Of a DNA stretch of 64,000 nt, positions 27,364-57,399 are shown piece after piece; the first letter of the stretch is position 1; every line of letters starts with the position of its first letter. Source of the DNA: Amphiscolops sp. MND2022 (Eukaryota); NCBI GenBank assembly GCA_964187785.1, contig OZ076409.1, forward strand, positions 45,324,001 to 45,388,000, read 5' to 3'. The notes beneath the pieces were generated by a model. That model did not search any database. It had not been told where the DNA came from and saw only the letters and a program-made list of their open reading frames with translations. The translations under genes were made by a program, and so were the position numbers.

Positions 27364-30300
27364 GAGTCTTGAAATATATTTATCACCAATATAAAGATGA
27401 AAGGAAGAGAAGCCGACAGTTTTACGGAAAGGGAGACATTGATTGTAACTTGTTTGTGGTAATTGACTTTCTATTTACCCTCTGTCTTATTAAATTTGAT
27501 TTCGGCTACTTAAAACGTAAGTGGAAGTTCCAACTCTCGGAATAAATAAATCAAGAGGCCGCAGGGCACTGGAGGATATGGGGGAATATCCGAGGGGTAC
27601 TTGATATGACATGTTATAATAATATGCTGACTACTTTATAATGATAAATTCGACAAAATCTGCCACTAAGTGGTCTTAAGTCAAATCACTTTAAGCCAAG
27701 TGACCAATACTCGAGACACTTAGCTTAAAAAAATTAAGCCAAGTGACTAATGTCATTAAGCCAAGTGACTTTAAGCCAAATGGTATCAAACCAAGTGACC
27801 ATTTGTCGATCATAAAGGGGTTAGACCTAAGTATTTTAGATAAAATTAGATCTGAAAGTTAGACCTAACAGTTAGATCTAATTCCATTAGACCCAAGCAA
27901 TTAGATCAAAGGCGTACACTCCAAGTAATACTAGGCCTATGTCAAATTGGGTAGTCAGTCAACGTATAAATTGGTGTTCATATAAATGACGACGCAATAA
28001 TTAATACATGCGGTATCTGCACTGGTACAGGTACCGGTACCGTACGTACTGGAGCCTTGTCAACCCTATACCGTACGTACCGGAGCCTTGCCTACCCTAG
28101 TAATATGGCCCAAAACTAAGCGAAACGAGATGAACCTTTGTCAATTTGATTAATTTATTATGATCAAAGTGATTGGTTGCTGTATTTACAATGTATATGA
28201 GTGTATAGAATAGTACGAGTAACCTGAATCTTTTCTGTTGCATTCTAATTGACTATATCAATGAAACTTTCATTTTTACTGATCTAAAAAGCTTCACGAT
28301 TCGACCCACGATTGGAACCAAAATCTCCCGATTTCCACTCTAAATTAAAAAAATCATTTAAAAAAAAATTTATTCCAGTTGGTGTAAATGTATTTCACTA
28401 TTGTATATCACTATTTACAATCAGTATAAACATTTTCCACTATAGTATAATATAGTGTCAATTAAAGTATAGTATAGTACAAGTATCCTGAATCGTTTCT
28501 AGTGCATTCTAGTTGACTTTTTCAATCAAATTTTCATTGTCATAGTATGTTCCATCATACTATAGTAAAGTATTGAAAAATTCTTCTTATTCATTTTTTT
28601 CAAATTCCTTTTCAAATATCATTTTTTCAAATTCAAATGCAGTTGGTACAATTGTAGTACCATAGTATAGAAGAGTCTTGAAATATATTTATCACCAATA
28701 TAAAGATGAAAGGAAGAGAAGCCGACAGTTTTACGGAAAGGGAGACATTGATTGTAACTTGTTTGTGGTAATTGACTTTCTATTTACCCTCTGTCTTATT
28801 AAATTTGATTTCGGCTACTTAAAACGTAAGTGGAAGTTTCAACTCTCGGAATAAATAAATCAAGAGGCCGCAGGGCACTGGAGGATATGGGGGAATATCC
28901 GAGGGGTACTTGATATGACATGTTATAATAATATGCTGACTACTTTATAATGATAAATTCGACAAAATCTGCCACTAAGTGGTCTTAAGTCAAATCACTT
29001 TAAGCCAAGTGACCAATACTCGAGACACTTAGCTTTAAAAAAATAAGCCAAGTGACTAATGTCATTAAACCAAGTGACTTTAAGCCAAATGGTATTAAGC
29101 CAAATGACCATTTGTCGATCATAAAGGGATTAGACGTAAGAATTTTAGATAAAATTAGATCTGAAAGTTAGACCTAACAGTTAGATCTAATTCCATTAGC
29201 CCAAACCATTAGATCAAAGGCGTACACTCCAAGTAATACTAGGCCAATGTCCAATTGGGTAGTCAGTCAACGTATAAATTGGTGTTCATATAAATGACGA
29301 CGCAATAATTAATACATGCGGTATCTGCACTGGTACAGGTACCGGTACCGTACGTACTGGAGCCTTGTCAACCCTATACCGTACGTACCGGAGCCTTGCC
29401 TACCCTAGTAATATGGCCCAAAACTAAGCGAAACGAGATGAACCTTTGTCAATTTGATTAATTTATTATGATCAAAGTGATTGGTTGCTGTATATACAAT
29501 GTATATGAGTGTATAGAATAGTACGAGTAACCTGAATCTTTTCTGTTGCATTCTAATTGACTATATCAATGAAACTTTCATTTTTACTGATCTAAAAACT
29601 TCACGATTCGACCCACGATTGGAACCAAAATCTCCCGATTTCCACTCTAAATTAAAAATATCATTTAAAAAAAATTTATTCCAGTTGGTGTAAATGTATT
29701 TCACTATTGTATATCACTATTTACAATCAGTATAAACATTTTCCACTATAGTATAATATAGTGTCAATTAAAGTATAGTATAGTACAAGTATCCTGAATC
29801 GTTTCTAGTGCATTCTAGATGACTTTTTCAATCAAATTTTCATTGTCATAGTATGTTCCATCATACTATAGTAAAGTATTGAAAAATTCTTCTTATTCAT
29901 TTTTTTCAAATTCCTTTTCAAATATCATTTTTTCAAATTCAAATGCAGTTGGTACAATTGTAGTACCATAGTATAGAAGAGTCTTGAAATATATTTATCA
30001 CCAATATAAAGATGAAAGGAAGAGAAGCCGACAGTTTTACGGAAAGGGAGACATTGATTGTAACTTGTTTGTGGTAATTGACTTTCTATTTACCCTCTGT
30101 CTTATTAAATTTGATTTCGGCTACTTAAAACGTAAGTGGAAGTTCCAACTCTCGGAATAAATGAATCAAGAGGCCGCAGGGCACTGGAGGATATGGGGGA
30201 ATATCCGAGGGGTACTTGATATGACATGTTATAATAATATGCTGACTACTTTATAATGATAAATTCGACAAAATCTGCCACTAAGTGGTCTTAAGTCAAA

Positions 30301-31061
30301 TCACTTTAAGCCAAGTGACCAATACTCGAGACACTTAGCCTAAAAAAAAAATAAGCCAAGTGACTAATGTCATTAAACCAAGTGACTTTAAGCCAAATGG
30401 TATTAAGCCAAATGACCATTTGTCGATCATAAAGGGATTAGACGTAAGAATTTTAGATAAAATTAGATCAGAAAGTTAGACCTAACAGTTAGATCTAATT
30501 CCATTAGCCCCAAGCCATTAGATCAAAGGCGTACACTCCAAGTAATACTAGGCCTATGTCCAATTGGGTAGTCACTCAACGTATAAATTGATGTGCATAT
30601 AAATGACGACGCAATAATTAATACATGCGGTAACTGCACTAGTACAGGTACCGGTACCGTTGGTACTGGAGCCTTGTCAACCCTATACCGTACGTACCGG
30701 AACCTTGCCTACCCTAGTAATATGGCCCAAAACTAAGCGAAAAGAGATGAACCTTTGTCATTTCGATTACTTTATTATGATCAAAGTGATTGGTTGCTGT
30801 ATATACAATGTATATGAGTGTATAGAATAATACAAGTAACCTGAATCTTTTCTGTTGCCTTCTAATTGACTATTTCAATGAAATTTTCCTTTTTTTTATC
30901 TAAAAAGCTTCACGATTCGAGCCACGATTGGAACCCAAAATCTCCCGATTTCACTCTAATTTTAAAAAAGAAATCATTTTAAAAATAATTTATTCCAGTT
31001 GGTAAAAATGTATTTTACTATTGTATATCACTATTTACAATCAGTATAAACAATTTCCACT
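27364..31061. repeat. Tandem array of a ~1.31-kb non-coding unit, 2.8 copies (starts 27364, 28673, 29979)
   Basis: Each unit begins gagtcttgaaatatatttatcacc; periods 1309 and 1306; internal ttaagccaagtgac and ttagatctaa sub-repeats; no ORFs in the track. Confidence 0.97.
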
Positions 31062-34000
31062 GTGACCGATTACCACAAGTATACAAATCTGATTGGTCTT
31101 CTTTTCTACAAATATTTAAAAAACAATTCTACTCACAGAAACAAGCCTATCATGCTCAAATTGAAGCTCTCTCATTTGTCAAAAAAATAATAAAAAAGTT
31201 CGTCACTTTGCTTCAAAAGTAGAAACTCTTGTTGAACAAGGATGGTGTAATGAATAACCTTCAACCATAAATCTTGAATGTAATGAATTTTTCACTCGTT
31301 GTCTTCCCAAAAAGTTGAAAGATTTCGCCAACAAACGCCAAGTTAAACATATCTCTAGCTCACTTGAACCTTCAAAACCATTCCACACTCTTTTCAACAT
31401 GGTTGACTCTGAAGACATCACCCTTGAAAAAATCAAAACTCATGAACTCTCTCTTGAACTCTTGAAATTAACTTCCTCTCAGAAAACCTTAAAGATACCG
31501 TCACCCTTAATGATACAACTTCTCCTCCAGTCAATCAATTAAGCCAAAATGATCCCAACAAAAAAACAAAACCTCAGTTCAAAAAATAATCTGTCACAAA
31601 AATAACCACTCTGTATCTACATGTTTTTGTCGTCTCAATCTATTAAATTACCGTTCATCCCAATCTAAATCTCCCACTCCATCATTTTATCAACACATTA
31701 AAAACTCTCGTCCAAATTCGTTCACCCGAAGTTCTTATAGAAACTGTAGTCGAAGTTTGAGTAACTCTCTTCATAATCACTCTCACTCAAAACCTACTTA
31801 TTTTCGTTCTCGTTCACCCTCTCACCATTGAAATAGTCAATACTTTTATAAAAAAGATCACCATTCCCACAAACACAATTACTTTTCTTCTAATACTGAC
31901 TCTAATCGCCGTACCCGGTATAACCAAAATTATAAAAATTCACACTCTTATTCTAAATCCTACCACACTTCTTGTCGCCCTTCTTCTAGACAAAACTCCC
32001 ACTCTCGTCATCGTTCTCATAGTAGTCATTCTAGAAATAACTCTAACTCTTTCAGATCCTAGGAAACTCCATATCGCCCCCTTCCCAACCACACTATCAT
32101 AGATCACATTCTCACTCTAACTCTAAACCACAATATCAACCTGTTATCAATCATATTGAACCTACTCCTTCTGATGACAATCCGTTTGAAATTAATATGA
32201 ACTACCCTACAATTACTGATGCTATAACCCCCTCTAGTTGGTTTTTTAATCCATAAATTTCAAAATCTAAAACTGACACTTCTACTCCATCAAAATTAGA
32301 GATCCTCTTTCTTTTGGATAGTGGTGATTCCATTTCTGTTCTTAATTTACCCACATACACTATTTTGGCTGAAAAATTTGTACAGTGCTCCTCTCAAATC
32401 CAGTTTCCGCCTTCAAAAACTATCACTGTTGCTGATAAAGCCCAAGTTCCTATTCTCTTTAACATTAACCTCACCTGCCATACTTCTGTCAACAATGACT
32501 CTCATACATTTATAATACCTTTTGCTGTTGCCAATATCAAATATAATATTCTTGGCACTCCATTTTTTGAACAATATGTTAAATCTCTTGATATTGAAAA
32601 CCTGACTTTTTTATTTGAAGGTACTCCAACCTCTCGTACACATAGCATTCCTTTCGCTGCTCACAAAGAAAAAGATTACCCCTTCTTTTCATATATTTAC
32701 ACTATCAACGTCTCAAAAAAACTTTTTTACAACCGAACTCTTCTAAAGCGGTCCACTTTCCCATTAAATCCTCTTCGTCCCTCTCATTTCAAACCACTGA
32801 AAACGAAACTATATTTCCCTCTACTCCGCATACATATTTTCATAAATGTCTCAACTCTACATTTAGTTTCCTTCAACTCCACGATCCAACCAAAACCACA
32901 CTTTCACCCTCATCCTGTTCAGTAGTAATTCAAAATATTACCAACCACTCTGCCACCCTTCCTTTTGGGTGCATTGGGTATATTGAAATTCCCGCTACCC
33001 TTGATCTTCCCACTGCTTACCACGTTCACGATATAAACTCCCTTGTTAATTCTGTTTTTAATTCCTATTATCCCACTCTTGTGGAACCTATGCCACCTTC
33101 ACGTTCAACATCACTACCATCAAACATATCATCATCCTTTGAACTCCATAACTTACAACCAACACAAATAATACAAAATTCCTTTCCTAAACCTCCCTAT
33201 TCAAAACAAACACTTTCAATTTTGCAGAACTTCAAATTTCAATACTCTGATATTACTAATGAAGAATATCTCAAAACTTGCGAAATCCTTGTTAATTATC
33301 AAAACTGTTATGCCACCCACCGTAATGACGTCGGTCATATCTCAACTCCCTTTGTATACGATTGAAACCAAACGCAAAACTTCAAACTCAACGCCCTACT
33401 AATGTTCCCCTACACTACCGCGAAATAGTAAAAAATCTCATCCAAGAAATAGAAACACTTTATATCAATCGCCAAATTGGTTCTAACTCTTCCGACACTC
33501 TTTATTACGAAACCACATTTTTGAATGCTCTCATCATTATCACCAAGGGAGATACAATAAAAGTTGTCCTCGACGCACACCACTTAAACTCAAATACCGA
33601 CCAAGCCTACGAATCTTGGCCTTTTGAAAAAACTTGCTCCTCACTTAGCTCGCGCCAATAAAAATATTATATCTGCCATTGACTTAATGTACGCTTATGC
33701 ACATGCTCCTCTCGACGAAGAAACCTTTCGCCTAACGAGTTTTTCATCTGGTGACAAACTTTACGCCTTTATCAAAGGTTTTCATGCTCTGAAAGGACTC
33801 TCCATTTTTTTTACAAAACAAATGTACACCTTTTTTCAAAAACTCATTGACCAAGGTTTTGCCTTAGCCTATATTGATGACATACTATTACTCTCTCATA
33901 CAAAATCTCATATGATTGAACTTATTGAACAACTTCACCGAATTTGCCAAAAAAACAATCTTTAAATTGCCCCTGAAAAATCCTTCTACGTACTCCTGAC

Positions 34001-37000
34001 CGTCAAATTTCTTGGACATGAAATTGGCAATTAAACAATTAAACCAATTCACTCTAAAGTGGGTGGCATCCAATAACTTAAAACTCCCTCTTCTAAACGT
34101 GAATTGATGCCTTTCATTGGTTCAATGAATTTCTATTCCAAATTCATTCAAAATATACAAACTCTCTCAAACCTTCTTACACCCTCCTCCTTGATGATGT
34201 CTCTTTTAACTGGACACCAGAACTTAACAAATTATTCGAAAGAAGTTAAACTCTCACTCAAAAACGACGCTGATTTAGCTATCCCTAATATTTCAAAGCC
34301 ATTCTACATAACTGTAGATGCCTCTCTTTTTGGCCTTGGTGCTGTTTTATTTCAACCAAATTCAAATAATAAAATGCAAATTATTTCATATAACTCGCGT
34401 ATCCTCAACACCCAAAAACAAAAACTTTCCACTTATGATAGAGAACTTTGCCCTGTAACATTTGCCCTCACTGTTTACGAATTCAGAGTAATAGGCTCAA
34501 AGTTTCCGATCACTCTTTTCACTGACCATAATCCACTCTTATTTCTCTTTACTCGTAAAGGCAATCTTACTCCACGAGAATACAAAACCCAATTGCTCCT
34601 TACAGAATTCTCCAATCTCCGTATCATGCATACAGGTGGTACAAACTTAGCTGTCGCTGACATGCTCAGTCGCAATTTTTCTTCTATTAACTCAAACTCT
34701 TGTGAATTACAACATAAAACTCTACCCCATACTGAATTTGCTCAAAGAACTCCAAACAATACTCTTACTGAAATTCATTATTTAGTGCAACACGAAGAAG
34801 TTTTACCAACTCAAAAAATGGCTCCCACCCTTTTCTTGGTGACTATGGCTCACAAAATTATACTCTTCGTATTAATGACAATGGTAATACCATTAAATAC
34901 ACTCCTCTTAACTCTTTTTCATTTAAATCCGTACTCCCTTTCAATCATAAATATAAACGTCCAGTCAAAAAACAAACCAACACTCTTTTACAACAAAACC
35001 CTCTTTTAAATGAAACGGATCTTGATAGTGATCATAATCCTATCTTTAAACGCATCCCCAAAGTATCAAAACCACAATCTTTCGAAATTAATGAACCAAT
35101 AGTTTCCAAGCCCCTTGACCCTCATTTACAGCAAGAACTTGTCTATGATATTTCTGTTGCCAAACACCACTTTTAGCTATAACTCCGACTCCAATTAAAT
35201 CAATCTCTAAACATAGTGTTATACCTTACTTCGATCCTTCATTCTTTAAACTACCAAAAAAATTTGAAAACTTTTTCTTGCCTCCAAACACACCTCTTAC
35301 AATACAAGTTATTGAAGAACAACGGAAATACAATCCTGTCCTTTCTATCGTTTACGATTGGATCAAAAATAAAACATAACCAGACACCCTTAACCGCTCT
35401 ATTAAAGGCAATTCCTTTCTCCACTTTTATTATAAACCATTCTCTCATTTATGCATTGACCCTACCTCACATCTTATTCACTACCTTCTTGATAACCCCC
35501 TTTCCTTTGAAGAATTAACTACTCCATGTTCTCAACCCAAAATTAACAAAACTCGCATTTGATTACCTTTTACACTCTTTTACGTGGCCTTCATGAAAAC
35601 CCACTCTCATGGACATTCTAAAGAAAAACTCTCAATAAAAACATTTAACCAGTTTTACTATGTACCTCAATTTCCACTTTGGTTTTCAATAATCATTCAT
35701 GACTGTCTTGAATGTCAAACCAACAAACATTTCCCTCTTAAACATAACATTGCTCTTCCTTTACTGTCTTATAAAAATGCTACTCATTTCAATTATCTTA
35801 ACTCAATGAATACAAAAGGTCCAACCTCTCCCACTTCATATGGTAACAATTACAATTTTGTCATTATTGATGCTTTCACCCATTATTACAAATCCCACTC
35901 GAAACGTGACTTCCAAACACGCGATTAACACCCTTCTCTACCACTGGATTACAAATTTTGGCCCCGCTCAATACTTACTCACTGATCGTGGCACTGAATA
36001 TATTAACCAAGACATTGCTCACCTACGTTCACTCTTTCATATTAAACACTCCCCACGTAGTCCGTCTTCTCCATGGACTAATGGCCTCGTTGAAAATCAA
36101 AACCGCAACCTCGGAACTCATCTTCGTTCATTTTTACTAGACCCTCCTAATAACTGGTCAATTAAACTCAAATGTATGCTTACGTACATAACACTACTCC
36201 TCTCTCAACTTTGAAATTGTCCCCTCATCAAACTGTTTTTCATACTCATCCTCGCATACCTCTTTCATTCAATTTAAATTTAACTCGAGACTCTGAACAA
36301 AAATGCACTTCATCCTTCTTTTCGACCTTACCTGCATTTTTTCATTATCAATCCACTGACCTTAATCCGTTCTTTTCCACCCTACTTTCAAAACCAATCT
36401 CTATTTGGCTCCTTGCCGTAGAATCAGCAATGCTCGAAATTGACTCCACCGTACACAAACATCCTAATCATAAATTAACCTCTTCCACTTCCACATTGGA
36501 ACAAATCTTCAAAAACAACTTCCTCTCAATACCTTTGTCCCTCACAAGAATTTTACACCTATTCACTTCTCTACCAAACTTAAACCCCTGCGAATTGGTC
36601 CATATAAAATAATCCGTCAACTTTCTGATGTTACATATGAACTCCTCTCCCGATCCGGTGAAACTTTTCATACTCACTGTAACCATATTTTCATTTACAA
36701 CTCAGAAGAACCCATTATTTTCCCTCACATCAATAATTACCAACTCCTCTCTCCGTCATTATTAAATAATCCTGACTCCATATCATCCAAAAAAAACCTC
36801 TCTGATACAGATATCACACCTCTTTCTTCCCCACAATCCGATACTAATAACAACGCTCCTCCTAACTATGAAGATCCGTCTCTCCTCTCTTCAAACTATA
36901 ATGTATCTCAACCTCTTGACGATTCACGATGTGACACTTCTCACTATGGTGATATGCAAGATAATCCTCTTTATCTTTCTACCTCACAAGTTACACAATC

Positions 37001-40000
37001 TCAACCCACGACTCCAATTCAAATTTTCCCTCGTGTTGCTGACTCAGCTCACACCTTTTTTCCTCAATGCCCTCGTCGTAATAGTACTCCATTAAATCGT
37101 CGCCGTAACAGTACACCCTATACGCTCCGCCATCTTCCTCACACCGATTTTCATGAATCTCAAACCCGTATCAACTTTCCCTCTGAGTGACATTCTCCAC
37201 TTCCGCCAAGTTATTTCTTTGTGTTGATTTCTTGTTTTTCAATCATTCTACCTTTTGGTATCGTCATATACAGTTGCTTGTAACAAATTTTACAAGTTGT
37301 CTAACTTGTCCAAAACCGTAGTCACACCTTTCCAACTCTAATCCCATCATCATCTCAATTTAACAATCTCTCGGATTTTGCAAAAACTCTAACTATCTAA
37401 CACAACCTTCCACCTTAGATTCCTTACCTCTCATCTTGGATTCCCAACCCTCTTCCTCTACTTCATCACATTCCAGACCCTAGTGATATTGACCCCTCTG
37501 TTTTTCAACGACTTCAAGCTCATGCTCTACCTACTGCTCGAAAAACTATTCGCCGTCACTCTCAAATTGATACCTCTCACCCTCTCCGTTCTTTTGAACT
37601 CCCTACTTTAGAACCTCTTGAGACCGCTCCTCTAAACTTGATTCTTGTACTCTCTCGCTAATATATCGTCGCCTTCCTCCTTCTACCCACTCCTCTTCGT
37701 TAGATAACTTACTTGACCCTCCCTCAGAATCATCTTCTTCTGTTTCTCTTTTCAAACCATCTCGGAAGAGATACCATCTTCGTTCAAATGAATTTCAAAA
37801 TTTGGAACCAACTCGATATAATTTACGATCTCAATCTCCAGCTCAACCCTTAGAATCAACCACCACCCAATCCCCATCTCTATCTCTTGCAAGTACCGCC
37901 GCTAATTTAGAAAGACATCACGCGCAATCTGTTTCTTCGGTTATATTATCCCCACATAGAATAACTGCTACCTCCGGTATTGATACTGAATTTTCTCAAA
38001 GCTCTTCACTCTCACCTAACTCTGCTTCTGGAAACTTATTCTCTCGTTCACCATCTCGTGTTAGTACTTTAACCTCAGGCTCTCAACTCATAATCATTGA
38101 CCTTGACATTGACCAATACTCAACTCCACCAACTCCTAATAGAATCGATTATCCCTTAATAGTAGACAATACCGTCATTCAAAGTCCTCGATTAGATCCT
38201 CGTTTCCGTTTTTTAGCTATACACAAAAGTACCAACCGTCCTTCTATCTCTGCAACACGTAAAAATACTGACCTCCAAAGATTAGATACTAACTCTCTCC
38301 ATTTTAAAGTTGAAATCACTGTAGAATTTGAAAATCTTAATCCTCATCCTATTTCCACCCACGCTCAAGTTCATTTTAAAACTACTCCACATCCATTTAT
38401 AACTACAAACTTGAATCTCTTTGTTAGTGATTCCTCCTTTTCCCCTTATCAATGGCTCCATCACCTTTTTAACACCATTTCCGGTCTTAAATATACCACT
38501 CAATTTTTATAGTTTACTCATCCTTTTAACTCTTCTCTGCTTATGCAAGCACTAAGAAAATAGTTGAACACAATGATCTCCATATCTCTGATCTTTTAGT
38601 CTCTCACCATGCTGACTACCATATTAATACCATGGAACGTCCGTTACAATTAGACCCCAGCGATTGTAAACTTGCTATCCGTCGACTCAATGGAACAAAT
38701 ACTTAACTCCTATAATTATAACAACTCTTTTACATTCTTTGATGGTGGTAAAAAACAACAACTTCTTGAAAGATTTCAATCTCGTTTTCAAATAACCCGA
38801 CTTAAAACTAACCATTATGGTACCTTTGCCCATGACCATAAATCTGATCTCGTTTTAAATATGAAATATGGTGCAACAAATGTCCGCAAAGACAAACACG
38901 AATATATCATTGAAAAAGACAGTTGGTCTTTTATTGTTCGTGAAGTAGAACTCACCTATGATGGAAAAGAAAACACCCTTATATATAATCGCCATACACT
39001 TCTCTGCTTACATGATGATGGTTTCTGTCATCCAACAATATTAACATCATACACTATCGTCTGGTTCCCAGATGATCTCTGTTTATTATTTTAAATCCAC
39101 TCCTTTATTGGACGATGGTCTAAAATAGGTAATCGATACTGGTTAGAAACCGAACACTTTTTAATGAATCTTATAACACTCACACTCCCCCTTCAGACAT
39201 AAACTCAGATAAAAATCGCCTCTCTCGTTTTGAAAAATATCCTGAACAAAGAACTTTTTGCAACAAACACACTCCAATACATACTACTCAATACCCTGAC
39301 CTCCTTTTTGCATTCAAAGAAGGCTTTTATCTAAACACTGGTAAACGCAACCCTCTTCACCTTCCTGAAGGTGACCAATTCATTCGATACTCTTCTCAAA
39401 ATCAACAGATCACTATCAGTCTTGTTAAAGACAAAGCTAAATTTCTCTTTCCCCTATTAAACTCAACTAACAACTTTGCAACCATTGACTATGATGCCCA
39501 CGTAAATACAAAAATTGATTACGCTATTAATCATGTTTTTAAAACTATGACTGTTTCAGAATTAAAACCCTCCACACTGTATGTGAATTAGAACGAACTC
39601 AACTCTTAACAATCCTCGCAAGGTCTGTTAAAAACCCTCAACTCGCTGGCTTCTTATTACCTCAAAATCGTAATAACTTTCTATATGTGGAAGGCTCAAC
39701 TGCCTGGGTTTTTGATTGCCCTCACCATCTCTCTCCATTATATATACCTGAAAAATGCTATGATAAAATACCTATTATCTACTTAGACACTGTTAAATAT
39801 GTTGATCCAATTACTCGTCAGACTTTTGATTATGCTACTCCTATACCTTGAGAAAACAACCCTCAAAACATAGTTGCTCTTGATCCTGATACCGATCAAT
39901 ATTATATTCTCACTCCTAAACCTATTAAAAGAGACCCTCCGCTCTTATTCGAACCTCGTCAAGTTAAAACAGCTCTTAGCCCTAACACTTTTACAGCACA

Positions 40001-43000
40001 AGATGCTGGCATATATTCAAAACAAGACCTCATACTTTTTGGGACCGCGTCTTTTTGCCACAAACTCCGACAATACTCTTCAACTTCTTGGCAAAGCAAT
40101 TAGCTATGAATTCATGTCACAAACAGATACTCTTACTTTTGCCACAAACAGATACTCTTACAAAAATTCCGACAATACTCTTCAACTTCTTGGCAAAGCA
40201 ATTAGCTATGAATTCATGTCACAAACAGATACTCTTTTTTAAACCCAAAACCCGAAAATCCCTATACAACTCTCCGTATTGGTCTGAGCGACTATATACT
40301 TAACATTGCCCCATTCTTAGATACTGGTTGGTTCAAATCCCAATTTATAGAAATTTTCGGCTACCCTGAATACATTCTTACTCAATGTGAAATTTGTTTC
40401 TCCACCGCATTTGTTCTCAATTTCACTTTCCAAACAGTTGTTCATGCATACAAAACCTTTAATGCAAAAAAAAATATTAAAACGACAATTTACATTTTGG
40501 TCCGCACTTAGTCACGGACTCCACAGAACCGTTTCTAAATCTATGATAAATGCAGTTGAATCTAATTATGACTCTGATGATAATAATACCAACACCAACT
40601 CTACCAAAATTAAAACATCCCCTTCTAAAAAATCCACTTCACATTATTCATCAATTAAAATTTCACACACTCCAAAATTTCAGATTAGATCATAATTCAA
40701 CTTCCGCCAATATTATACAACCCACTGCACTTAACAATTCTCCTGAACTTCCATTAACCATTCCACCATTTTCTGTTACCTCCAATCCATTATCATCAAC
40801 TCCCATTACAGCCGATTCAATTAATACTTCCTCAAAAAACAATTTTAACAATCCCTCTTCAAACTCGAATTTCTCCACACCTCCGCCAAGTTATAAAGTG
40901 ACATCTTTTGGCCCTCCTTAATTATTCAAACTTCCCTCTTTAAAAAATCTTACTCAACTTTCAAACGCTCCTTTTTCTCAATCAACTTCTTCACAAACAA
41001 TTAATACTCTTCCACTTAATACCTCACCTCCTGAATTAAACATTTCACTGTCCCCCAAAAAATTCTCCTCCTGATAGTCCACCCAATACTTCTTCCACAA
41101 CCCGCGTTCATACAACTCAGCCGACTTAAAAAGCTACAACTTCCAAACTAGATAACTTCGTTCTTTCTTACTAACCTACCCATATTTATTTCATCATAAT
41201 ATTACAAGTAAATAATTTCGTCATGTTAACTAATATTGTTCTACCAACTCATAATATTGATATTGATCAAGAACTTGAACATTTTAATCCTTCTTTGTCC
41301 TAACTCAATCTCTTCTGAAATCCTTGAAGCATCTCTACCAACTGTTTTTGACCCTCCGCATCTAAACTTAAACCAAACCATTATCAAGGAATCATGTGAA
41401 GACTCATTCTCATCACAAATCCCCCCTGTTCCATATCCAAATGCATTAAAAAGTCCTTGCTCTGCTACTTCTCCAGATACTCTTCAAGTCACTATTAATA
41501 ATGATGTCACGCCCCCGAAAAAACGATACGACATGATGCAAGATCCTGTTTTTCTAAACTCTGGCCTCATGCCACCAAATTTGCAACCTTCCAAAACTCC
41601 TTCCAAAATGACAAACATTCCTGATGATTATATCCTTACTCACACTGAATTTAAACCAAACCTCCCTGCTTTATGTATGACTCCTACTGACTATAATTTC
41701 CAAATTCCTCTTGATCGTACTACCGATCACTATGTATCCTATGCCTCCCGAAATTCAACACAATTTCAATATTGGCAAGAAAAAAAGTTGAAATTTTTTC
41801 CTCCAGTACAACTTCTCCTAAACCAACTGCTGCTGATCTTGGTTCAAACCCAAACGATACTACTCCCGCCTCTGTCAAACGCCTCCACCATCGCACATAC
41901 CAAATTTTCCTTCAACTCAAAATTCCTCAAATTTTCATCTTTCAAAATCCTAAATTCACTTCTCCCTTCACATTTTTGGGACACTACTATCTCGATCATC
42001 ATGCCCATGTTAGCACTATACGCAATTTTGATCTTCTCAAACAAGCATTCCTCTTCATGTTATACGAAAATCTAAATCGTCCCTTGATAATACCACAAGA
42101 ATACCTTATACTTAATGATTACCTCACACCCGCCAATAAACCAACACATGTACAAGAACTCTCACCTTATTTTCAAAAAGTCCTCTCGGGTCCATTAACT
42201 GACAATGAACGATCGTACTACCATACCCTTGTTCAAAAAAGATATACTAACGCAGAAATAATGTATATCATTGCTAAATTATCTACCTTCCTCTTCAATA
42301 ATCAATATAAATAAGGCCCCCTTTCTTCAAAAACAACTCGAAATTCTACTGATTCATCATTCACTCTCATCACCCCATCCATAACACTCCTCCTGTTGTT
42401 ACAATTAATGCTTTCACTTTTCCAACAGACCTCTTTATAAACAAAATATTAACACTTCTTAGACCACATGTAGGCTCTGATCCACATGCTAATCCAATGG
42501 ACCTCATCAAAAACATTTTCGGTATCTATCAAACATTAAAAGACTTCTCTTCAGATATTTCACAGATACACTAAATACTCCGTAGATTCAGGCATCCTCA
42601 TTTGATGCCTCCTCAACCAATTAAAACTCTCCTCTCAGGTTCATATTATCTGTATTTAAATTCACTTAAATTTAACACTTAATCTGATAATTGCTTAACA
42701 CACTCTATATAATTGCTCAAAATTTCTCACTACCTAAATAAAGCCTATTACTTGAAATTCTCATTTTCTTTCTCCTGGCACAACTTATATTACACTTTGC
42801 TTCTCTTTTTCACTCATTTTTCCCAAGCATTTTGATATGCTAGTCACATCATATAACATACATTCACATTTACTTAAAAAAATCTCTCAATCAAATTAAA
42901 ACAAATTCACATCACAAAATATAAAAGCTTTTGCATTCTTCCTCTCTTTCATTCTTCTCTGTTTCAGCTTCCCAAACACTCGCTCTTGTAATTTCTGCTC

Positions 43001-44700
43001 TTCTGCTTCTCCATACCCATCATGAACTCCTACCCCATTCTTCGCCAGTTGCTAGATGCTCCCATCACTGACACTCCCAATCCGACTTTCACAACTACTC
43101 CCATCACTGACACTTCCAATTCAACTCCGTTCACAGCCGTCATTCACACGATTCCACTTCAGCTATTCCACCCGTCTCCGAAGCCAACCCTCATCGTCCG
43201 CCCAAGAAACTTCTGCCGCCACCGGGCAAGTTCTGGCCACCAAAAGACTGAAACACAACAATGAACTCTACTACAAAACTCTTCATCAGTATAATGAACT
43301 CTTTAAATCTCATGAAACCTATTTAGACACTTTTTTACTAGCAAATTCATTTCATAACTTGTTTCTTAACACTTCAACATCTAAATCACGTAATCTTTTC
43401 GCATATAAAAAACTATCCTCCCAAATTTCCGTACTTCAGCCCTATAAAATTGCTTTTAATCAACCTTTAGATGCTAATAAACTTTTACACCCACCTCAAA
43501 CGATGGCCCCCAGTTCTCCATCATGTGCTTCTCCATCTTTGGATAATTGTGACACTTCCATCACTGATGATCCTTTGGATAATCCGGATAATGATGCTAT
43601 TTCTGATATGTCAATCAATGATAACAATGATGCTATTTCTGAAACGTCCATCGATGATAATAATGATGACCCTATTCCTATTGATGAAATAGAGGAACCC
43701 TTTACACTAATAATATTTCGGATGCTTCCGATACTTCTTCCATTTTTGATGATGCACCCCCAATTCGTATTATCGATCGCTACCCCGATCCTTTTCCTTT
43801 TTTTCATCTTTCTCCCCTTCATCAACCCCCTTCCTCCCTTGAAGATGTTGACTAATTTTTGTCATTCAACTCTTCCTTTATTATTTTTGCCGCTCTTAAA
43901 ATTTTTGTTATCAGCCTTGTATATTTACACTTTTCAAATTTTTCAAAAACGGCCCGGAAATAATTCATCAAAATTAAACCCACACCCAAAAATAAACTTC
44001 AAACATTCCACTTTAAAATTCAAATCCAACTCTGAAAACTTTCTTTTCTTACCTCTTGTTATCACTTCTCAACCATCTAATTGCACTGAAAATGAACTCT
44101 TAAAAAAGTTGAAACTCATAAAAATTTCAAGAACCAAATAGCCCGCTAAAATGTTTTTCTCAATGACTCGTTTCTGTCTGAACAAATTCTTTTCACTCTT
44201 TTAACCTTGATCTCGACTCAAATCTTCACATGTTGATCACACTCTATTTAAAGATAACTCAAACTTCAATCTGTCAGTCAATCAAAATATTGAATGTTGA
44301 CCAACACTTCAAACTCATGCTCGAACTCCGACCTAAAATAAGGAACGATAATTAAACCATGTTTCTAAGAAAACACTTGAAACAAAACTGATCATCTCTA
44401 GGAAAGATTTCGGAACTCGCTCAAAAAACCTTTTAAACTACAACCTCTCACAAATTTTGCCAATCCCGCTCGGAAGAAATACTTCAAATTTTGATTCATA
44501 ATATCTCACCCTTTGACCTAAAAGGCAACTCCATTTTGTTAATTGTCATTTATATACCGACCCCTCTTAACATCCTCTATTTGATTGAAGTACTTCCCTT
44601 TCATAATTGATGTAATCTTACTATTTTCCAAATTCTATACTCATTCGTAATTATATATTGTGTCAATCACTGTAAACCACTTTTGATTTGTATAACCCAC
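31062..44700 (+). mobile_element. Large decayed Ty3/Gypsy-type LTR retrotransposon (gag-pol, accessory ORFs, env-like gene); 5'-truncated, ends approximate
   Basis: Gag fragment (31150-31560) and knuckle remnant CHKNNHSVSTC; protease LFLLDSG (~32300); RT IDLMYAY..AYIDDILL (33620-33960); RNase H TVDAS..YDREL..TDHNPL..ADMLSR (34300-34680); integrase H..H..C..C, LLTDRGTEY, WTNGLVENQN (35590-36250); IGPYKI (~36595). Order PR-RT-RH-IN; uniform G-poor strand to ~44.7 kb. Confidence 0.9.
38535..40600 (+). pseudogene. env-like gene remnant resembling class III viral fusion glycoproteins (chuvirus G / herpesvirus gB type)
   Basis: Translation across a few lesions: ..TLLCLHDDGFCHPT..YTIVWFPDDLCL..IDYDAHVNTKIDY..TLHTVCELERTQLLTILA.SVKNPQLAGFLL..FLYVEGSTAWVFDC..CYDKIPIIYLDTVKYVDPITRQ..IP(C>stop)..DAGIYSKQDL..WFKSQFIEIFG plus a hydrophobic segment. 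It lies 3' of pol. Confidence 0.75.
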
Positions 44701-45147
44701 TTTAGAAAAATAGATTCCCCAGAAAACAGTTTTGCTTAGATTGTCATCTGCAGCTCTGACTCTCTACCAGGTACTATCAAATAATGTTGAAGTATTTGAC
44801 AAGATTCTAAACTGGACCCCAAATAAAAAATAGTTCACTATTCTGGTCAACAGACAGTTCATGCTTGAGAAAAGATAGAAAGGAAGGTAGGTAATATAGA
44901 TTCGGCCATCATGGCCGGGGATTTCCTCCCCCTCAATGTTCGTCGCAGTTGGTCAGATTTTCCACGTGTTACTGACATCTCCTTGTATTTGTTATTGAAA
45001 TACCACCACAAGTAGCCCAGGAGTCGTTGTTTCAATACTTGAGGGTTTTTGAAATTGATTGATTTCGGAAGTCTGTTTATGAGTGCACCAGTCTTGTAGA
45101 AGAAGCTGTCTCGACATATTTGCTACTTGGGTTTCTTGTTATCAAAT

Positions 45148-45922
45148 TGTTTCCACCAAAATCTCCTGAGGGGTTGTCGTTTTAATTCGATAGCTCTTAC
45201 GATGAGCTTTTAACTTCGCTACTACGATGAGCGACAATAGAACGCTTTCATAGATCTTAGCCCTACTACGCCTAATAATGCTACTTCGAGAACTTTTCTA
45301 ATTAATTTGGACGCCTAGAACAGCTGATCGTTTACTTTTTTGATCGTTTAGCAGTGCAATGCTACCCTCCCGGTCCCAACTTGTCTAAACCCTAACCGGT
45401 TAGCCACTCAACAGCTGTCAAAGACATTTAGGTTTCAAGTATTTTTTAAATAGCGTTCTGAATATGATATCAAAATCCATCAAACTTATACTCTACTCAG
45501 CGAAGGTACAATTGATAACCTTTACAATCACAGAATATTCAAATAACAAAATTGCATAAGGTTTTTCCATCACGTTTTCTGACAATTCACTTCTCCAAGT
45601 TCGAAATGCTTTCCAAAAATTTCCATAAAGATGTAAATCTATCAATGAAACTAATATGAACGGCTATTTGATCGATAGGTTGGTTAGATAACATTTGACT
45701 CAAATCACGCCACCCTTCTCGTTCGAAAAGAGTCAAAGTACATTGAACTTAGGAACAAACATTTAGCGCCATTACCAAATTGATCATTTGACTTCAAATT
45801 GTCACAGCAGCACAGGTTAGTGAATTGTGGTTTTGAGTTTCGAGTGTTTTGGAATGTTTTGAAACTCAAGATTTCAACTATCTCAATTTATCTAAGTTAG
45901 TTCTCGATCTCTGGGGCCAACA
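45148..45922 (-). repeat. 3' LTR of the BEL/Pao element
   Basis: Begins TGTTGG directly after the purine-rich GAAAACAGGGCCGGCTA at the end of integrase and ends GGAAACA; its last ~266 bp match 52323-52590. Confidence 0.75.
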
Positions 45923-48900
45923 TAGCCGGCCCTGTTTTCTGAAAACAATCGTCAAATAGTGCCACCAGCTTCACAGTGGGTCGAACGAAAATCCCATTTG
46001 AATTCTGGATCTTTGCTCATCGAACCACTCCCTCACTGCCCCGGAAGACATCCAAAACTCTAGCCATCTGATTTTTGTACCGCTTGAATGACTCATCAAC
46101 GACCCACATCAGATCACCTAATCTGGGGGCACGTGAATCATTGCTCTCCCTTTTTGGTCGCACGTTCCATTTCGGCAAATAATCGCAAGACCGTCTTTTT
46201 CATATCATATCATGATAGGCTTGAGACACTCTAAAGAACATTCGTCAGTTCACATATCTTGATGCTTCCGGAAAAAGTGGCTCAGAAAATGCCGGTCTGC
46301 CCAGTAGAAAATGATTAGTCGTTAATGCCTCCAGATCCTCTGGATCATCACTGACAGGCGACAAAGCTTTTGAATTTAGCGTCTCATCAACCAGACACAT
46401 CGTTGTGGTGAGTACTGGTAGAGTCATGCGTCGACTTCCCAAGATAGCAATCATAGACTTTTTGCAACATCTCACAAGTCGCTCCCATATACCACCGATA
46501 TTGTGGCGCTGCAAAAAGATTGAATTGCCAAGCGACGCGCTGCTTTGGGACATTCCGAAATAGCATCTTGGTTCCATTCGCCGAAGCACACTTCGAACTC
46601 CCGTGCAGCTCTAACGAACTTGGTACCGTTGTCACTGATAGTTTTCAACGGTTTGCCCCTCATCGCTTTGAACCGCGTGATTGCCATCATGCACGCGTCT
46701 CTGTCCAAGCCGTTCACGACTTTGATGTGAACTGCCCTGGTGACTAGGCAAGTGAAGAGACAACACCAGTACTTGGCTGTCTTCCTGAAGAATGTCACTT
46801 CGAAGGGTCCGAAGTAGTCGACCCTGTGTTGCTGAAAGGCTACACGTTCTGCTGGGCTCGCTCCTTAGGCAAGTCTGCCATGTGAGGTTGAAATGGTTGT
46901 CACGCAGTTTTCCGACATTGTACACAGTTGTACTGGATACGTCTCAAAGCGTTCCTGAGTCCAGTTATCCAGTTTTGTTGTTGCATTTTGTTTCTGACAT
47001 GTTCGGTTCCTTCATGATGATTGTCCACGTGAGCTTGTCTCAAGAAAAGAAAGATCGCAGGGTGTTGAGCTGAAAGAAGAAATGGATGCTTCGTCTCATC
47101 AGGAAGCATTGACTTGTTCAGCCGTTTTTTCAGTATTATTGTGGCCTGCTTGTCTAGAAAAGAACACCATTTAGCATCTCAGTCTTGGTAGGCTCTCAGT
47201 TTTTTTGATGAGCTTCTCATACAACTCAGGGTAGCTCTCCCGCTGTGAGAGTTGCAGGATCGTCAATTCTGCTGCATTTAGCTCATCAGGCATCAAGGGT
47301 CCTCTCCGTTTGGTTTTGATTCTTCCACAGTGGACAAGCATATTGAGTAATCGCTTAAATTGAAAGAATCTAGTCCAACCACGAATACTTTCCCTGGTGG
47401 CTATGGTGCATACTTGTTCGTCCTCGGTTTCGACTAACTGCTGTTATGGCCAGTTCTCCGGTTCATCTTGCAACAAAACCGGCCCGTTTAGCCACTCACT
47501 TTCTCGCAATTGCTCAACAGTGACACTTCGAGTTCCAATATCCGCAGGATAGTTTGTTGTTTCATTGGGGCTATTTGGCACTTTCCCGTCACGAAGTAAA
47601 GTTCTGTTCCGTTTGATGTCAGAGCTCTAATGTACACCACAATGCACATTAATTCCAAGGAGGCGTCTGAAAATATGTCAAATTGGCTCATGAAGTATCT
47701 GCGTCTCAGTAGAGAACTTGGCAACTAATTCAACACGTCAGCCCATGTTAGGAAGACGGTTTGATTGTCATCGTCAATTTATTGATCCCATTGTTGACCT
47801 GTCTTCGCCCATCCAGTCTTCAACAGCATCCTCATCCTCATTCTGAAAGGTGCAAATAGTCCAAGTGGGTCGACGACAGAAGCTACGAAAGAGAGTACTG
47901 CTCTCTAAGTGATTTTCAGTGGCACTTTTTTGTCAGCTCCACGGCAAACTTCAAATTCGTTAGTTTATACATTCCATTTAAGTCCCAAAAGCGAAGAGGT
48001 TTGCGTCTCGGCCTCAAAAGTCTTGTTTATTGCGTGTGATCTAACTTTTCCCAGTATCGAGGTAAACACAGCTTCATTGTTGCATATCCATTTCAACAAG
48101 TTGAACCCTCCGAACTTCAATGTCCCTCCCACTCCTTGGTACAGAAAACGCGCTTCTTCTTCAGTGTTTACTGATTTTGCGAAGTCGTCCATATAAAAGT
48201 TTCTTTGGATGGTTTTTGTTGCCACGGGATGGTCCTTTCCGTTGACCTTCGCACTTCTCTGCAGCGCAAATTTAGCACAAGTTGCCTTACCCTTTTGCTC
48301 CAAAAATGTGACGGGTGAATTCATACACGGAGATCGGATCTTCCGTATGATTCCTTCATAAGAAACGTAACACCTTGCGGTCTTGTCATAGCACTTTCAC
48401 TTGCAAGAACATCGCTTCTATGTCAGCTGTCAGGGCGATTTGATGCTCCCGGAACCTGAAGGTGATACACTATGTTTTGCAAGAGGTTATGTTCGTGATA
48501 AGCATATCGTTCAGAGAAGTTACTCGAAAATTCGCTGCAACATCACAAACCCTTCGGACTTTCTCTGCTCTGTGAGGTTTTATCACTGGATGGTGAGGCA
48601 CATAGGACTGAGTCTCATCTTTCGTTTCTCTAAGTTCTTCTTCATCCAGTTTCTCGACATAATCATTCTCCACGTCTACTTTGATTGTCTCTTGATATTT
48701 ATCTTTCGATGATAGAGACTTTTCCAGGCGTCTTTTCAAAGAGCAAACTGTAAATGGGCTGAGAAGGAGTTGTTTTTGATCTTCGGGTTGTCTTCTGCCC
48801 ATGCTAGGCCGACTTCATATCTACCATCGACCAGTTTAGTTGTTTGTTCCAACTGCGCCAAAGCTCTTTCATCTTCCTTTGACTGTCCGCTGACATTCAC

Positions 48901-51900
48901 TCTCGTCGTATGGTGCCAAACTGAACCACGACTTCAGTTGTGCGCTCATTTCACCATCTTCTGATGCAAGATGACTTTTAGCTGATGCAACATTTGCCTT
49001 TCATGTTTCGGTAGAGGGCAACTGAGAGTCCATCTCAGTTTATCTTAGGGCTCATTTTTGTGGCCTTTCTTGTATTTCTTTGGACAGAGCAAATAGTAGT
49101 TATGTTGCTCAAGAACCACCTTGACTTTGCTCACATCGAAAACTGCATTTGGTAGGATATCTAAATGTTTGTAGTTTTTTTTGATAGAGTGATAATCGTA
49201 ATACTTCTTGCCCAGAAACATGCTTGGATGCACATGAAACAAAACAGTTTCTCGAGCTGTAGGAGTTGTATTTTCCAACTTCACTTTCTTACATTGAATT
49301 TGTTTCGTGCCATTGATTCCTGCAATGTTGAGAGTCAAGCCAGTACCTTGTGCTTGAAGTTCTTTCTTCAGTGTTGAATCATTGAAGAATAGCGTAGAAC
49401 CCGTGTCACAAAAAGCCAAAGTGTCACACGGTTTGTTTCTATGTGACAATCTCAAAGCCACAAACTGCAGACTCCCACTGCATGAGTTCGCGGTAGCTAC
49501 TTGATTCGCTTGCTCAACTTTCTCCTTCTTTGATTCCGATTTGGGGCTATCAGGGTTTTCTTCACTTTTCAACAGGCAATTGTGGTGTTCACTGCACCCA
49601 TTCTTGTCACGAACTCTGTTGCTTTTGCACTATCAAATTCGATGACCGGAACTGAGACAAGAAAAACACAAGTTTTATTTCTCCACCGTACCGTATGGTT
49701 CATCTAGTGTCATATTTTTGAAAGGTTCACATTGCTACAACTTATGTTCCCCATCTTTCAATGGACACGAGGTTTTGTTTTTGGCGGAGGAGTCCGTGGT
49801 AGCAGCAAAAGTGGTTGTTTTTGGTTTGTCTCTGTTTGTTGTTGGTTTTGTCTTGTCGCTTGCCGGATGTTCTCTTGTACCTGAGCAATGTTTTTCAACC
49901 AGGCGCTGAGCACCCTCAAGCTCTTGTATGTCGGGTCAAATCGTTGCAGGTAAAAGAGCCTTTTGTTTTCAAGCTCGATTGGTAGTTTCCTCACTGCACT
50001 GTAACGAACTGACTCCGAAGCAATGTCACTTTCATACCCATAATGAGTCAGGACATTGACAAGTTGGGGTCGAGCAAAATCTTGCTCAAGTGTTGGCCAA
50101 GCCAGTTGATACATGCCACCAGAGTAGCCCATATCGTCTTATTAATGATTTCGCTCTTCTCGTTACAAAAGTTTTCAAGTAGTTCATCTTGACACTGTCC
50201 GGTACTCCAGCTTGATCCACAGGTGCTAGAAACTGTCCAGACCACTCAGGCCACTCAAGAGGATCTCCAGCGAACTTTGTAGAACCAGTTTCGGTAGTTT
50301 CATTGGTGACATTACTGATGGAAGAGCTCTGAATGATGTCGTTCTCACCGATTGATTATGTTGCCATTGTTTTGGTGGGCTGTTGCTCGCAGCAGGCGTT
50401 GATATTATCTGAGGTACGAATATCTTCTCGTGGATGAACTCAATCGTTTTCCCTTTGACGCCTGTTTGTTTTTCGGGCAACGATGGCTCCTTGGTAAGAC
50501 ACTGTTGATCATCTTTGAAGTCGTGTGCTGTGCCTTGATCTTCATTCTTCACATGTAAGTTCGGTTTTCTTTTGTCGTCGTTTGAGTGATTGAAAAAATT
50601 CCTTGACGAATCCAACCAATCTTTTGCAGTCGCGGTTTTGTCAGTCTCAGAATGATCCATACTGCAAATGCTAGATCTCGATAAAGCTTGCTCCTTTTTT
50701 CAACTTCTTCATTTTCAGATGAAGTTGTATCTTGTGGGTCATCTCTTCCAATTCTAGGGCCTGCTTTGATATTGCCAATTCCATCTCTCGCTTCTTCTCT
50801 GTCGGTTCTGTTTCCAGCTCGCGTCGCTTACGTTTCAACTCAACCTTCTGCTGCTTATTTTTGACCTCAGCCAGCTTCTGTTTGTTCTTTGAAGAGTTGT
50901 GCTTCAAGCGCCACACGTCTTCGAGACGATCGAGACAAAAGACTTGATCCCAATAGTTTTCTTGCGCTGCCCATGATATCCTCTGCCTCTTCTGTGATCG
51001 GCATTTCCTTTTGACGGGATACAACGCTGACTTCAGCTGCCCCTACATTAGAGTTGGTATCCTCTACGGGAGCATCCGCTGCTGGACTTCCTTCAGTGGC
51101 TCCAGCAATTCCTTGACCGGCAGAGGACTCAGTGTCTTCATTTTCATTGTCTGACAGTATCATTGTTGTCTCCACATTTTCGGCGCGTTCTTTGACTTCC
51201 CTCAATGCCACCGGTAAGTCAAAATTTTGATGAACCATTTGATTTTAACCATCTCTGGCATTTTCTCCTGGCGTTCGTTCAAATAGCTCAGCCAGCCAAG
51301 TAGAGCAAGCTTCTCCTGTGCAAGCTCATCAGCTTCCTCGTTTTGCAAAGTTACCAAGAGAGGTTTGATTAGTCGTCGCTCCTGTTGATGAAGCATTCTA
51401 TGTTCATCTAGTCGATGAGTGAACCTTTGAAGAAGTTGCCGTATCTTTGGCAATCTGTCCTTTTGTCGGATCAAAGCATTTATCTCTCGTTTCAACTCAG
51501 CTTGATATTTAAGATTGTATCGCTGTTTGTCTTCCAACTTCCCAAATTCCACAATAGAAGCTTTGATTATGAGGAGCTCTAATTTCTTGACAATCAACTT
51601 GAAGCGTTTTTTGTCGTCCATAGCTCCACCGCTTTGTCCAGTCCGAAAAAAGTTTGTTTTTGGTGAGCTAAAAGCTCTTGCTGTGCCTTTGTGTTCAACA
51701 TTGATGTGATCGATGTCACCAAGTCCATGAACTTCTGCTTTTCAGTAGAGAATTCACTGCAGAATTTCCCTAAGATGACAAGTTTGATATCTAGAGTCCA
51801 GTTAGTTTTCTTGCTGAATTGATCTTTTGAGACAATCTCCTTTAAAGTTTTGAAGCTTTTGTCAAAAACCTCAACGTCAGCTTTCCACTTGTTAAGATCA

Positions 51901-52322
51901 CATGACTTCTTCAACTCTTTCAACCTTTTTTCGTCTTTGAACCATGTTATATCGAGCTCCGGTATCATGTTCGGAACCATCTTTCTCGTGGCTTTCTTAA
52001 TTTCTAATCAAATTATCCGAACAAGTAGTGCTCGAGTCGGCTGACTAAATGTAACGGCCGTTGAAATCTTCCAGCGGAATTGAGCTTCCTCCGGTCCCTG
52101 GTCCTTAACGCTTTTCCGACAAAAAAGCAGGAACAAACTTTCAAAAGGACTGTATCTGTTCAATGAGTTCTCAGCTGCTATCGACCTTGTGTTTTTCAAC
52201 TCCAGACTCTTCAGGCTGAGCAATACTTCGATCTCGATACTTCTTTTGACTGGAAATCGGCTTCGCCTCTTGTTGTGCGGAGGTTGTACGCTCAACCACA
52301 GCAACTGACCGTCCTCAAGAAA

Positions 52323-52590
52323 TGTTTCCATCAAAATCTCCCGAGGGGGTTGTCGTTCCAATTCAATAGCACTTACGATGAGCTTTTAACATCGCTACTA
52401 CGATGAGCGACAAAAGAACGCTTTCCTAGATCTTAGCCCTACTACGCCTAATAATGTTACTTCAAGAACTTCTCTGATTGATTTGGATTCTAGAACAGCT
52501 GATCGTTTATTTTGCCGATCGTTGAGCAATGCAATGCTACCCTCCCAGTCCCAACCTGTCTAAGCCCTAACCGGGTAGCTACTCAACAGC
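52323..52590 (-). repeat. Truncated 5' LTR of the BEL/Pao element
   Basis: Colinear with 45148-45415; about 29 differences by manual alignment (~89% identity). Confidence 0.85.
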
Positions 52591-55800: not shown

Positions 55801-55940
55801 GCCACCTGAATCTGTGGGACCAGTACAAGAATTTCAAGTCAATCCGCACACTCCTGCTCCCACCTTGCGACGCTCGGCAAGGAACAGGAAGTCACCTACC
55901 TGCCTGGGTGGCTTTGTGTTGGCTACGAACTAGACTCTTT
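52900..55940 (+). mobile_element. Decayed Ty3/Gypsy element (gag-pol remnant)
   Basis: Gag LKRLVEDCDC, VRDVLISGLRYDDIRVRLLE and Cys/His knuckles; RT RMVIDYSQTFN..YLDDVII; RNase H LQTDACGTGIG..YSVVEREA..TDQKAL; integrase PWERLSIDIVGP, VDEFSRFPFA. Confidence 0.88.
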
Positions 55941-55984
55941 CGAAGCGTGAAGGAGTGTTATGAAAGTAATATATATCCAACTCC

Positions 55985-57330: not shown

Positions 57331-57399
57331 GTATTCCATTCATGAAATGCATTTGGAGAAAATTGCCACAACCATGCCAGATCGACTTTCCAAAATGTG

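Follow-up and report, generated by a model that had tools for sequence, protein, structure and literature searches.

Within a 64,000-nucleotide stretch of the Amphiscolops sp. MND2022 genome (the window; contig OZ076409.1 of assembly GCA_964187785.1, positions 45,324,001 to 45,388,000), we have analysed a decayed Ty3/gypsy copy at 31,063-44,837 that carries a broken envelope gene (env) downstream of pol. The account that we consider likely as a whole is that this env belongs to an old copy of an 18-19 kb Ty3/gypsy element, in which an accessory open reading frame (ORF2), started at CUG, and Env, started at AUG, would be translated from one leaky-scanned RNA, and whose particles would bear the fusogen. 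Gypsy elements with a gB-type env are already known; what appears to be new is the five-gene layout together with the predicted CUG-initiated ORF2-env message. A first-pass annotation of the window had noticed the env remnant and had missed both the accessory ORFs and the CUG/AUG-free feature.

Unbroken relatives and the linkage of env to pol

When the env piece was searched against its own genome, 6,209 candidates were obtained, of which 150 were scored; 69 of these 150 lie in open frames of at least 900 codons, by a hand count in which some small-contig matches may be assembly duplicates. Through env we retrieved 10 copies, picked for long open frames on large contigs. All 10 (family F1) are long terminal repeat (LTR) elements of 18,734-18,911 bp with the order gag-pol, ORF2, env, ORF4, ORF5. 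Their LTRs of 319-339 bp have the ends TG...TA (L032:2680-2999), and those of the window's subfamily and of family F2 end in CA. The LTR pair is identical in seven copies, shows one difference in two and three in one, and a 4-bp target duplication was found in nine. In seven copies gag-pol is a single frame of 2,636-2,658 codons accompanied by an unbroken env frame. Intact copies, for which the first-pass annotation had proposed to search, are present in this genome; the family has been recently active and has left many young, unbroken copies.

Family F2, with an env 54-55% identical, is represented by two retrieved copies of 18.1 kb that keep the same order through ORF4; their LTR pairs are 99.5-100% identical, and 49 of 50 scored F2 env matches have no stop. 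Family F3 (env 27-29% identical; four copies retrieved) has pol and then env, without ORF2, and only in F3 was a Pfam match to a protease found. In the one F3 copy of four that was scanned, an ORF with a MATH/TRAF domain directly follows env (L079:2635-3615; Pfam E 1e-11).

The F1 primer site, present in 10 of 10 copies, matches the 3' ends of host tRNA-Met(CAU) genes over 11-12 nt. Genes for tRNA-Val and tRNA-Leu also fit the primer pattern, and we favour tRNA-Met, since related primer sites continue across the T-arm sequence of that tRNA. A GCGAC acceptor stem was seen in host tRNA-Met genes (L088:158-231, L091:135-207, L044), and some genomic matches have CCA and resemble primer sites that related elements copied across the T-arm or beyond (L090).

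Other features of the young copies were recorded along the way. At least 5 of the 10 (flanks of L033, L034, L036 and L039) sit inside tandem repeats or simple satellites, which may reflect a target preference or a survival bias. About 500 residues lie ahead of the gag capsid domain (L013:88-1500), with no Pfam match and with a ratio of nonsynonymous to synonymous substitution rates (dN/dS) of 0.155 over the first 450. An open alternative frame of 320 codons overlaps integrase in 6 of the 10 copies (L013:6194-7153), spans 276 codons in one further copy and is interrupted in subfamily B; it has no Pfam match and is probably a by-product of codon bias.

The Pfam set on the unbroken gag-pol (RVT_1, RT_RNaseH, RT_RNaseH_2, Integrase_H2C2, rve, SH3_Tf2-1 and Retrotrans_gag) is of the Gypsy type. 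Among solved structures, the closest to its reverse transcriptase (RT)-RNase H (RH) is Ty3 (E 6e-35), with caulimovirus (2e-21) and retroviruses ranking lower. Neither DUF1759 nor Peptidase_A17, which we take to be the marker domains of BEL/Pao, matched the unbroken gag-pol, and a BEL/Pao identity was rejected. The Gypsy class originally given to this pol is thus upheld.

Since the 10 full copies had been picked by env, linkage was run from the integrase side. Among the best 150 integrase matches, 127 have an env match 2.5-5.8 kb downstream; 20 of the remaining 23 were retrieved, and env lay within 7 kb in 16 of them. Env therefore follows integrase in 143 of 147 places examined (127 + 16; 3 of the 150 are left out). 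Of the four places without env, three are truncated, and in the fourth ORF2 has moved to the end of the stretch. Together with the 10 of 10 full copies, these places bear out the linkage of env to the same pol, which had also been proposed as a check.

The same counts decide against a chuvirus-like endogenous viral fragment that merely adjoins a Gypsy element. In arthropods, Gypsy pieces often flank fragments of this kind (PMC10084718). Here, however, env occupies a constant position between the LTRs in all 10 full copies and in both F2 copies, and linkage from both sides refutes the idea, to which we give practically no weight. We conclude that the element is, with near certainty, an env-bearing Gypsy.

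The envelope protein: predicted fold, selection and origin

The peptides first quoted as env (CELERTQLLTILA.SVKNPQLAGFLL, VEGSTAWVFDC, CYDKIPIIY, YVDPITRQ and AGIYSKQDL) are real and lie in one + strand frame at about 39,585-40,035, and the WF..F..IFG stretch and hydrophobic segment were found at about 40,330-40,450, again on the + strand. A 102-residue piece of the window env (39,543-39,848) matches PF24664 (Monjiviricetes_fusion) at 30.2 bits (cut-off 27; E 1.5e-7), and the unbroken env matches this family at E 1.7e-27. In a natural env of 923 residues, hydrophobic segments at 2-20 and 679-697 are the predicted signal peptide and membrane anchor, 14 cysteines precede residue 540, and no R-x-K/R-R site occurs. 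The Ser/Pro-rich tail contains two PPxY motifs, which are putative budding motifs.

The env ectodomain of a natural unbroken relative was modelled with AlphaFold as a monomer from a 100-row alignment (predicted local distance difference test, pLDDT, 78.9; predicted template-modelling score, pTM, 0.62). Foldseek matched the model to herpes simplex virus (HSV) 1 gB at E 4e-13 with a template-modelling (TM) score of 0.27, and all 35 matches listed were herpesvirus gB. Using VIA-align, the whole model gave Z 10.9 against gB over 446 aligned residues at a root-mean-square deviation (rmsd) of 17.8, and domain IV alone gave Z 9.0 over 156 residues at an rmsd of 3.5. It weighs against a gB assignment that whole-model TM-scores are low (0.26-0.29) and the rmsd high, so that it is the domain order and local folds that carry the match. 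In a viral structure library the best matches were models of chuvirus-, xinmovirus- and qinvirus-like glycoproteins (E 4e-27 to 2e-25), to which env is 12-14% identical; an Atlas search, taken as a lead only, returned the same glycoprotein families. Sequence searches of env against solved structures, with the single protein or a 100-sequence profile, gave no match, and gB was found by fold search only. Through PF24664, Foldseek, VIA-align and the viral library, the early assignment to chuvirus/gB-like class III fusogens has gained support, and we predict that env encodes a gB-type class III fusogen.

Comparison of dN/dS among copies, another of the checks suggested at the outset, gave 0.072 for the whole env between subfamilies A and B, and 0.032 for the ectodomain at a dS of 0.94. 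We think it very likely that env is maintained as a working fusogen.

Trees of RT-RH and of env (10 rows; no outgroup, midpoint root) give the same three groups, corresponding to F1, F2 and F3. As env follows RT in all three families, and gB-type env is already described in Gypsy elements, the data lend no support to a new capture or to an independent one, the latter suggested earlier for the fusogen. A recent capture from a chuvirus-like RNA virus by this Gypsy family would agree with chuvirus-like glycoproteins being the closest structural matches, ahead of herpes gB, and with the Pfam family being Monjiviricetes_fusion. Yet identity to the viral proteins is only the 12-14% given above, the three Gypsy families have envs 28-55% identical whose tree is the RT tree, and gB-type env is reported to be old and widespread in Gypsy (PMC13524379). 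We regard such a capture as very improbable.

ORF2, its CUG codon and the proposed route to Env

Env had been described as lying 3' of pol; it is indeed downstream, but not directly, with ORF2 in between. ORF2, ORF4 and ORF5 are under purifying selection, as are gag-pol and env: between A and B (dS about 0.9-1.3), dN/dS is 0.087 for gag-pol, 0.089 for ORF2, 0.056 for ORF4 and 0.27 for ORF5. None of the three accessory ORFs had a Pfam match below E 0.07. Against the PDB, the ORF2 profile returned no rows and the ORF4 profile four non-significant ones, and ORF4 had no usable match in the Atlas. The ORF2 model is of low confidence (pLDDT 57), with a best fold match of Z 3.6 among 48,161 chains and no matrix protein listed, a result that speaks neither for nor against the idea that ORF2 resembles the matrix proteins of negative-strand viruses. 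Homologues of ORF2 (186) and ORF4 (30) all come from one record source type; a pattern scan of metagenome contigs for ORF2 gave 40 pattern matches, none of them confirmed.

ORF2 contains no methionine in 442, 442, 442 and 410 residues. At its head, ATC-CTG-GAT is present in 10 of 10 F1 copies, 2 of 2 F2 copies, 5 of 8 relatives from the window's subfamily (the region is absent from the remaining 3) and 15 of 16 additional copies that bear env. The conserved A-x-x-CTG-G has A at -3 and G at +4, a context favourable for non-AUG starts (PMC5902531). CTG accounts for 2 of 344 and 3 of 346 Leu codons (<1%) in gag-pol plus env. Between this CTG and the env start, ATG occurs in any frame 0, 1, 0 and 2 times, against 6.6, 7.5, 6.8 and 8.6 expected; it is the most depleted of the 52-55 trinucleotides tested there in 4 of 4 elements, each of which has its longest ATG-free run here. 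When the protein sequence is kept constant, out-of-frame ATG is still depleted in A and C (0 vs 3.8, p 0.0015) and in F2 (p 0.03), and no such depletion was found in env, ORF4 or ORF5. The conserved CUG context and the near AUG-free run to the env start thus lead us to predict a CUG-initiated, leaky-scanned ORF2-env message. Readthrough or frameshifting from pol into ORF2 was rejected, as the frame relation differs between families and stops intervene.

Several points weigh against this prediction. One env-bearing copy (L105) has no match to the CTG motif, and the window copy has TTG at that position. Out-of-frame ATG depletion in subfamily B is not significant (1 vs 1.9, p 0.30), and A, B and C are close kin, not independent cases. 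In F3, which has no ORF2, the interval from pol to env is not depleted of ATG either, so env as such does not depend on this design. The candidate splice acceptor for the message, a pyrimidine-rich CTAG 35-55 nt after the pol stop, was picked by eye. An RNA run, uninformative for the model, yielded 13 short contigs with no joints.

A different arrangement would splice ORF2 to an upstream AUG exon and place env on its own spliced mRNA, as in Drosophila gypsy, with the CTG acting as an RNA signal and not as a start codon. A spliced env mRNA is the usual errantivirus route, and a pyrimidine-rich run stands just before the CTG in F1 and in the window's subfamily. However, there is no AG at the conserved CTG motif, F2 keeps A-x-x-CTG-G though it has no pyrimidine run, and splicing leaves unexplained why ATG has been lost from every frame of a 1.2-1.6 kb stretch that stops precisely where env starts. 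We hold splicing of this kind to be unlikely, and CUG initiation with leaky scanning to be fairly likely.

On the CUG reading, a subgenomic RNA would open just after pol and present one to three short upstream ORFs, after which some ribosomes would start ORF2 at the CUG while the remaining ribosomes would scan on to the env AUG, the first AUG. Env would be delivered to membranes, particles would bud with the fusogen, and these may enter other cells, probably of the germline, in a soma-to-germline spread as in Drosophila gypsy. The chances that cell-to-cell infection takes place today seem to us evenly balanced. A point against it is that purifying selection and linkage would also be expected if Env had a role other than infection. 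The element might transpose only within cells and keep Env for another job, such as cell-cell fusion, receptor blocking or particle trafficking; it has been pointed out that the way in which gB-bearing elements enter cells is not known, and that gB of herpesviruses depends on partner glycoproteins (PMC13524379). Nevertheless, the ectodomain dN/dS of 0.03, the retained signal peptide and membrane segment, and the presence of env in 143 of 147 places, where env-less derivatives are not dominant among the top integrase matches, make a purely intracellular life rather unlikely.

Going further, fusogen-bearing particles and the leaky-scanned message could together describe a 'complex' invertebrate retrovirus: 18-19 kb, Gypsy-derived and still spreading, equipped with a gB-type fusogen and with three accessory proteins that belong to no known family, and with the CUG-initiated accessory protein and Env made in a fixed ratio from one RNA. 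This extension is tentative, and we think it somewhat more probably wrong than right. If true, the ORF2-env RNA would correspond to those messages of complex vertebrate retroviruses that combine an accessory gene with env.

The window copy and comparison with known systems

The window copy lies in a strongly C-rich stretch at about 31-45 kb, and its parts are collected in Table 1.

Table 1. Recognisable parts of the decayed Ty3/gypsy copy, in window coordinates
Feature	Position	Strand	Evidence
gag, C-terminal part only	31063..32095	+	tblastn and blastn against unbroken copies; Retrotrans_gag in unbroken copies
pol: protease (DSG motif), RT, RNase H, integrase (zinc finger, core, SH3-like end); many stops and frameshifts	32077..37190	+	Pfam on window pieces; tblastn 43-58% identity to unbroken gag-pol
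ORF2, accessory, without Met	37436..38512	+	TTG at 37,436 where relatives have conserved CTG
env, predicted class III gB/chuvirus-like fusogen gene, broken	38515..41075	+	fold from natural unbroken relative; 3' end placed by position
Best-conserved env piece; end of central helix and crown domain by model	39543..39851	+	PF24664; 81% identical to unbroken copies
Tandem duplication, 102-bp, within env	40059..40251	+	window self-repeat comparison
ORF4, accessory, about 495 aa in unbroken copies, broken here	41230..42570	+	tblastn 42-50% identity, E 2e-78
361-aa open frame at ORF5 position	43056..44141	+	weak likeness to unbroken ORF5: BLASTP 23% over 120 aa, E 0.015
3' LTR of the window's subfamily	44475..44837	+	matches both ends of 4 of 8 relatives

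The 5' end of the element (5' LTR, primer site and first ~530 codons) is absent. Upstream of env, Pfam on window pieces gives the order RT, RNase H, integrase zinc finger, core and SH3; evidence of a protease is the DSG motif only, with no Pfam match to a protease in this copy. The open part of ORF2 (37,622-38,512) is in the same frame as the TTG, with a stop in between, and is 50% identical to unbroken ORF2. Besides its duplication, env has suffered stops, frameshifts and an internal deletion of about 190-220 nt at ~38,610, a gap relative to 8 of 8 closest relatives: residues to about 45 align at 38,491-38,610, and residue 119 onward from 38,614. The N-terminus that the first-pass annotation had thought missing is therefore partly there. 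Its env end at 40,600 was too early, as the Ser/Pro/Thr-rich tail appears, by position, to run to about 41,075. The LTR pairs of four relatives from the window's subfamily are 85-90% identical, this subfamily has ~70% DNA identity to the young copies, and the window copy is placed in an older subfamily. It was rightly called dead, because it has stops, frameshifts, the 102-bp tandem duplication, the env deletion and a lost 5' end.

In the surrounding window, three head-to-tail copies of a 1.3-kb unit (94-100% identical in parts) at 27,364-31,061 abut the truncated 5' end of the element. A decayed minus-strand element with terminal repeats 7.2 kb apart occupies 45,170-52,590, and its integrase text we take to be BEL/Pao-like. 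Further Gypsy-type pieces (RNase H, gag, integrase), in which no env was seen, lie at 54,614-63,755.

The type of glycoprotein is shared, as cargo of an LTR retroelement, with the mosquito BEL/Pao elements (Anakin) that reportedly carry a chuvirus glycoprotein, whereas pol here is Ty3/gypsy (Gypsy-type Pfam set, Ty3 closest). Contrary to the initial view that env captures of this type are known from BEL/Pao only, gB-type (HSV/gB) env has been described in Ty3/gypsy elements across invertebrate phyla by Chary and Hayashi (PMC13524379), whose set includes elements found with a mosquito chuvirus-like glycoprotein as bait. The statement that arthropods hold no clear Gypsy capture of such glycoproteins (PMC10084718) is superseded by that report.

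Like the HSV/gB-type errantiviruses (PMC13524379), the present elements have a Gypsy pol, the order gag-pol-env, LTRs, a tRNA primer site, many near-identical copies, and a gB-type env that has a signal peptide and a membrane segment and lacks a furin site. The group is defined by unbroken gag, pol and env within a single element, which were found in 7 of 10 copies and not in the window copy. The present elements differ in their 18-19 kb length, in having gag and pol in one 2,640-aa frame, in a coding insert of 1.3-1.7 kb between pol and env, and in one or two further ORFs after env. The initial filter of PMC13524379 worked on 10 kb regions and tolerated a distance from pol to env of no more than 1,000 nt, with later manual steps extending 3-5 kb downstream. 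In its seven supplementary files the present primer site has no match, and peptide searches of the supplements, which may hold no sequences, gave none. Acoel or xenacoelomorph names do not occur in the available content of supplements 1 and 6, from which we draw no inference, and the available main text has no match to 'accessory' and two incidental ones to 'additional ORF'.

The Burro giant Gypsy elements of planarians (PMC6431247) are likewise oversized animal Gypsy elements with an env-like region and accessory domains, and a MATH domain occurs in both Burro and F3. Burro exceeds 30 kb and has env inside a polyprotein between gag and pol, whereas here env forms an ORF of its own downstream of pol. 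Additional ORFs, either between pol and env or behind env, have been noted in LTR elements before (PMC6431247), so that their presence as such is not new.

The predicted translation resembles that of rice tungro bacilliform virus and badnaviruses, where the first ORF has a non-AUG start and no internal AUGs, and ribosomes scan to the next gene (PMC5902531). Rice tungro bacilliform virus is a plant pararetrovirus using its pregenomic RNA and an AUU start, without an envelope; the design here is predicted only, would use CUG, and concerns an internal part of the genome. In the literature searched, mostly outside subscription papers, we found no LTR retrotransposon for whose env CUG initiation or leaky scanning has been described; if true, a CUG-started, AUG-free gene ahead of env would be a translation design not encountered there for any LTR retrotransposon. 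By what means retroelements with gB gain entry to cells, in the absence of the partner proteins of herpesviruses, is named as an open question in PMC13524379. With three conserved accessory proteins that travel with env, and with many young copies at hand, these elements open that question to study.

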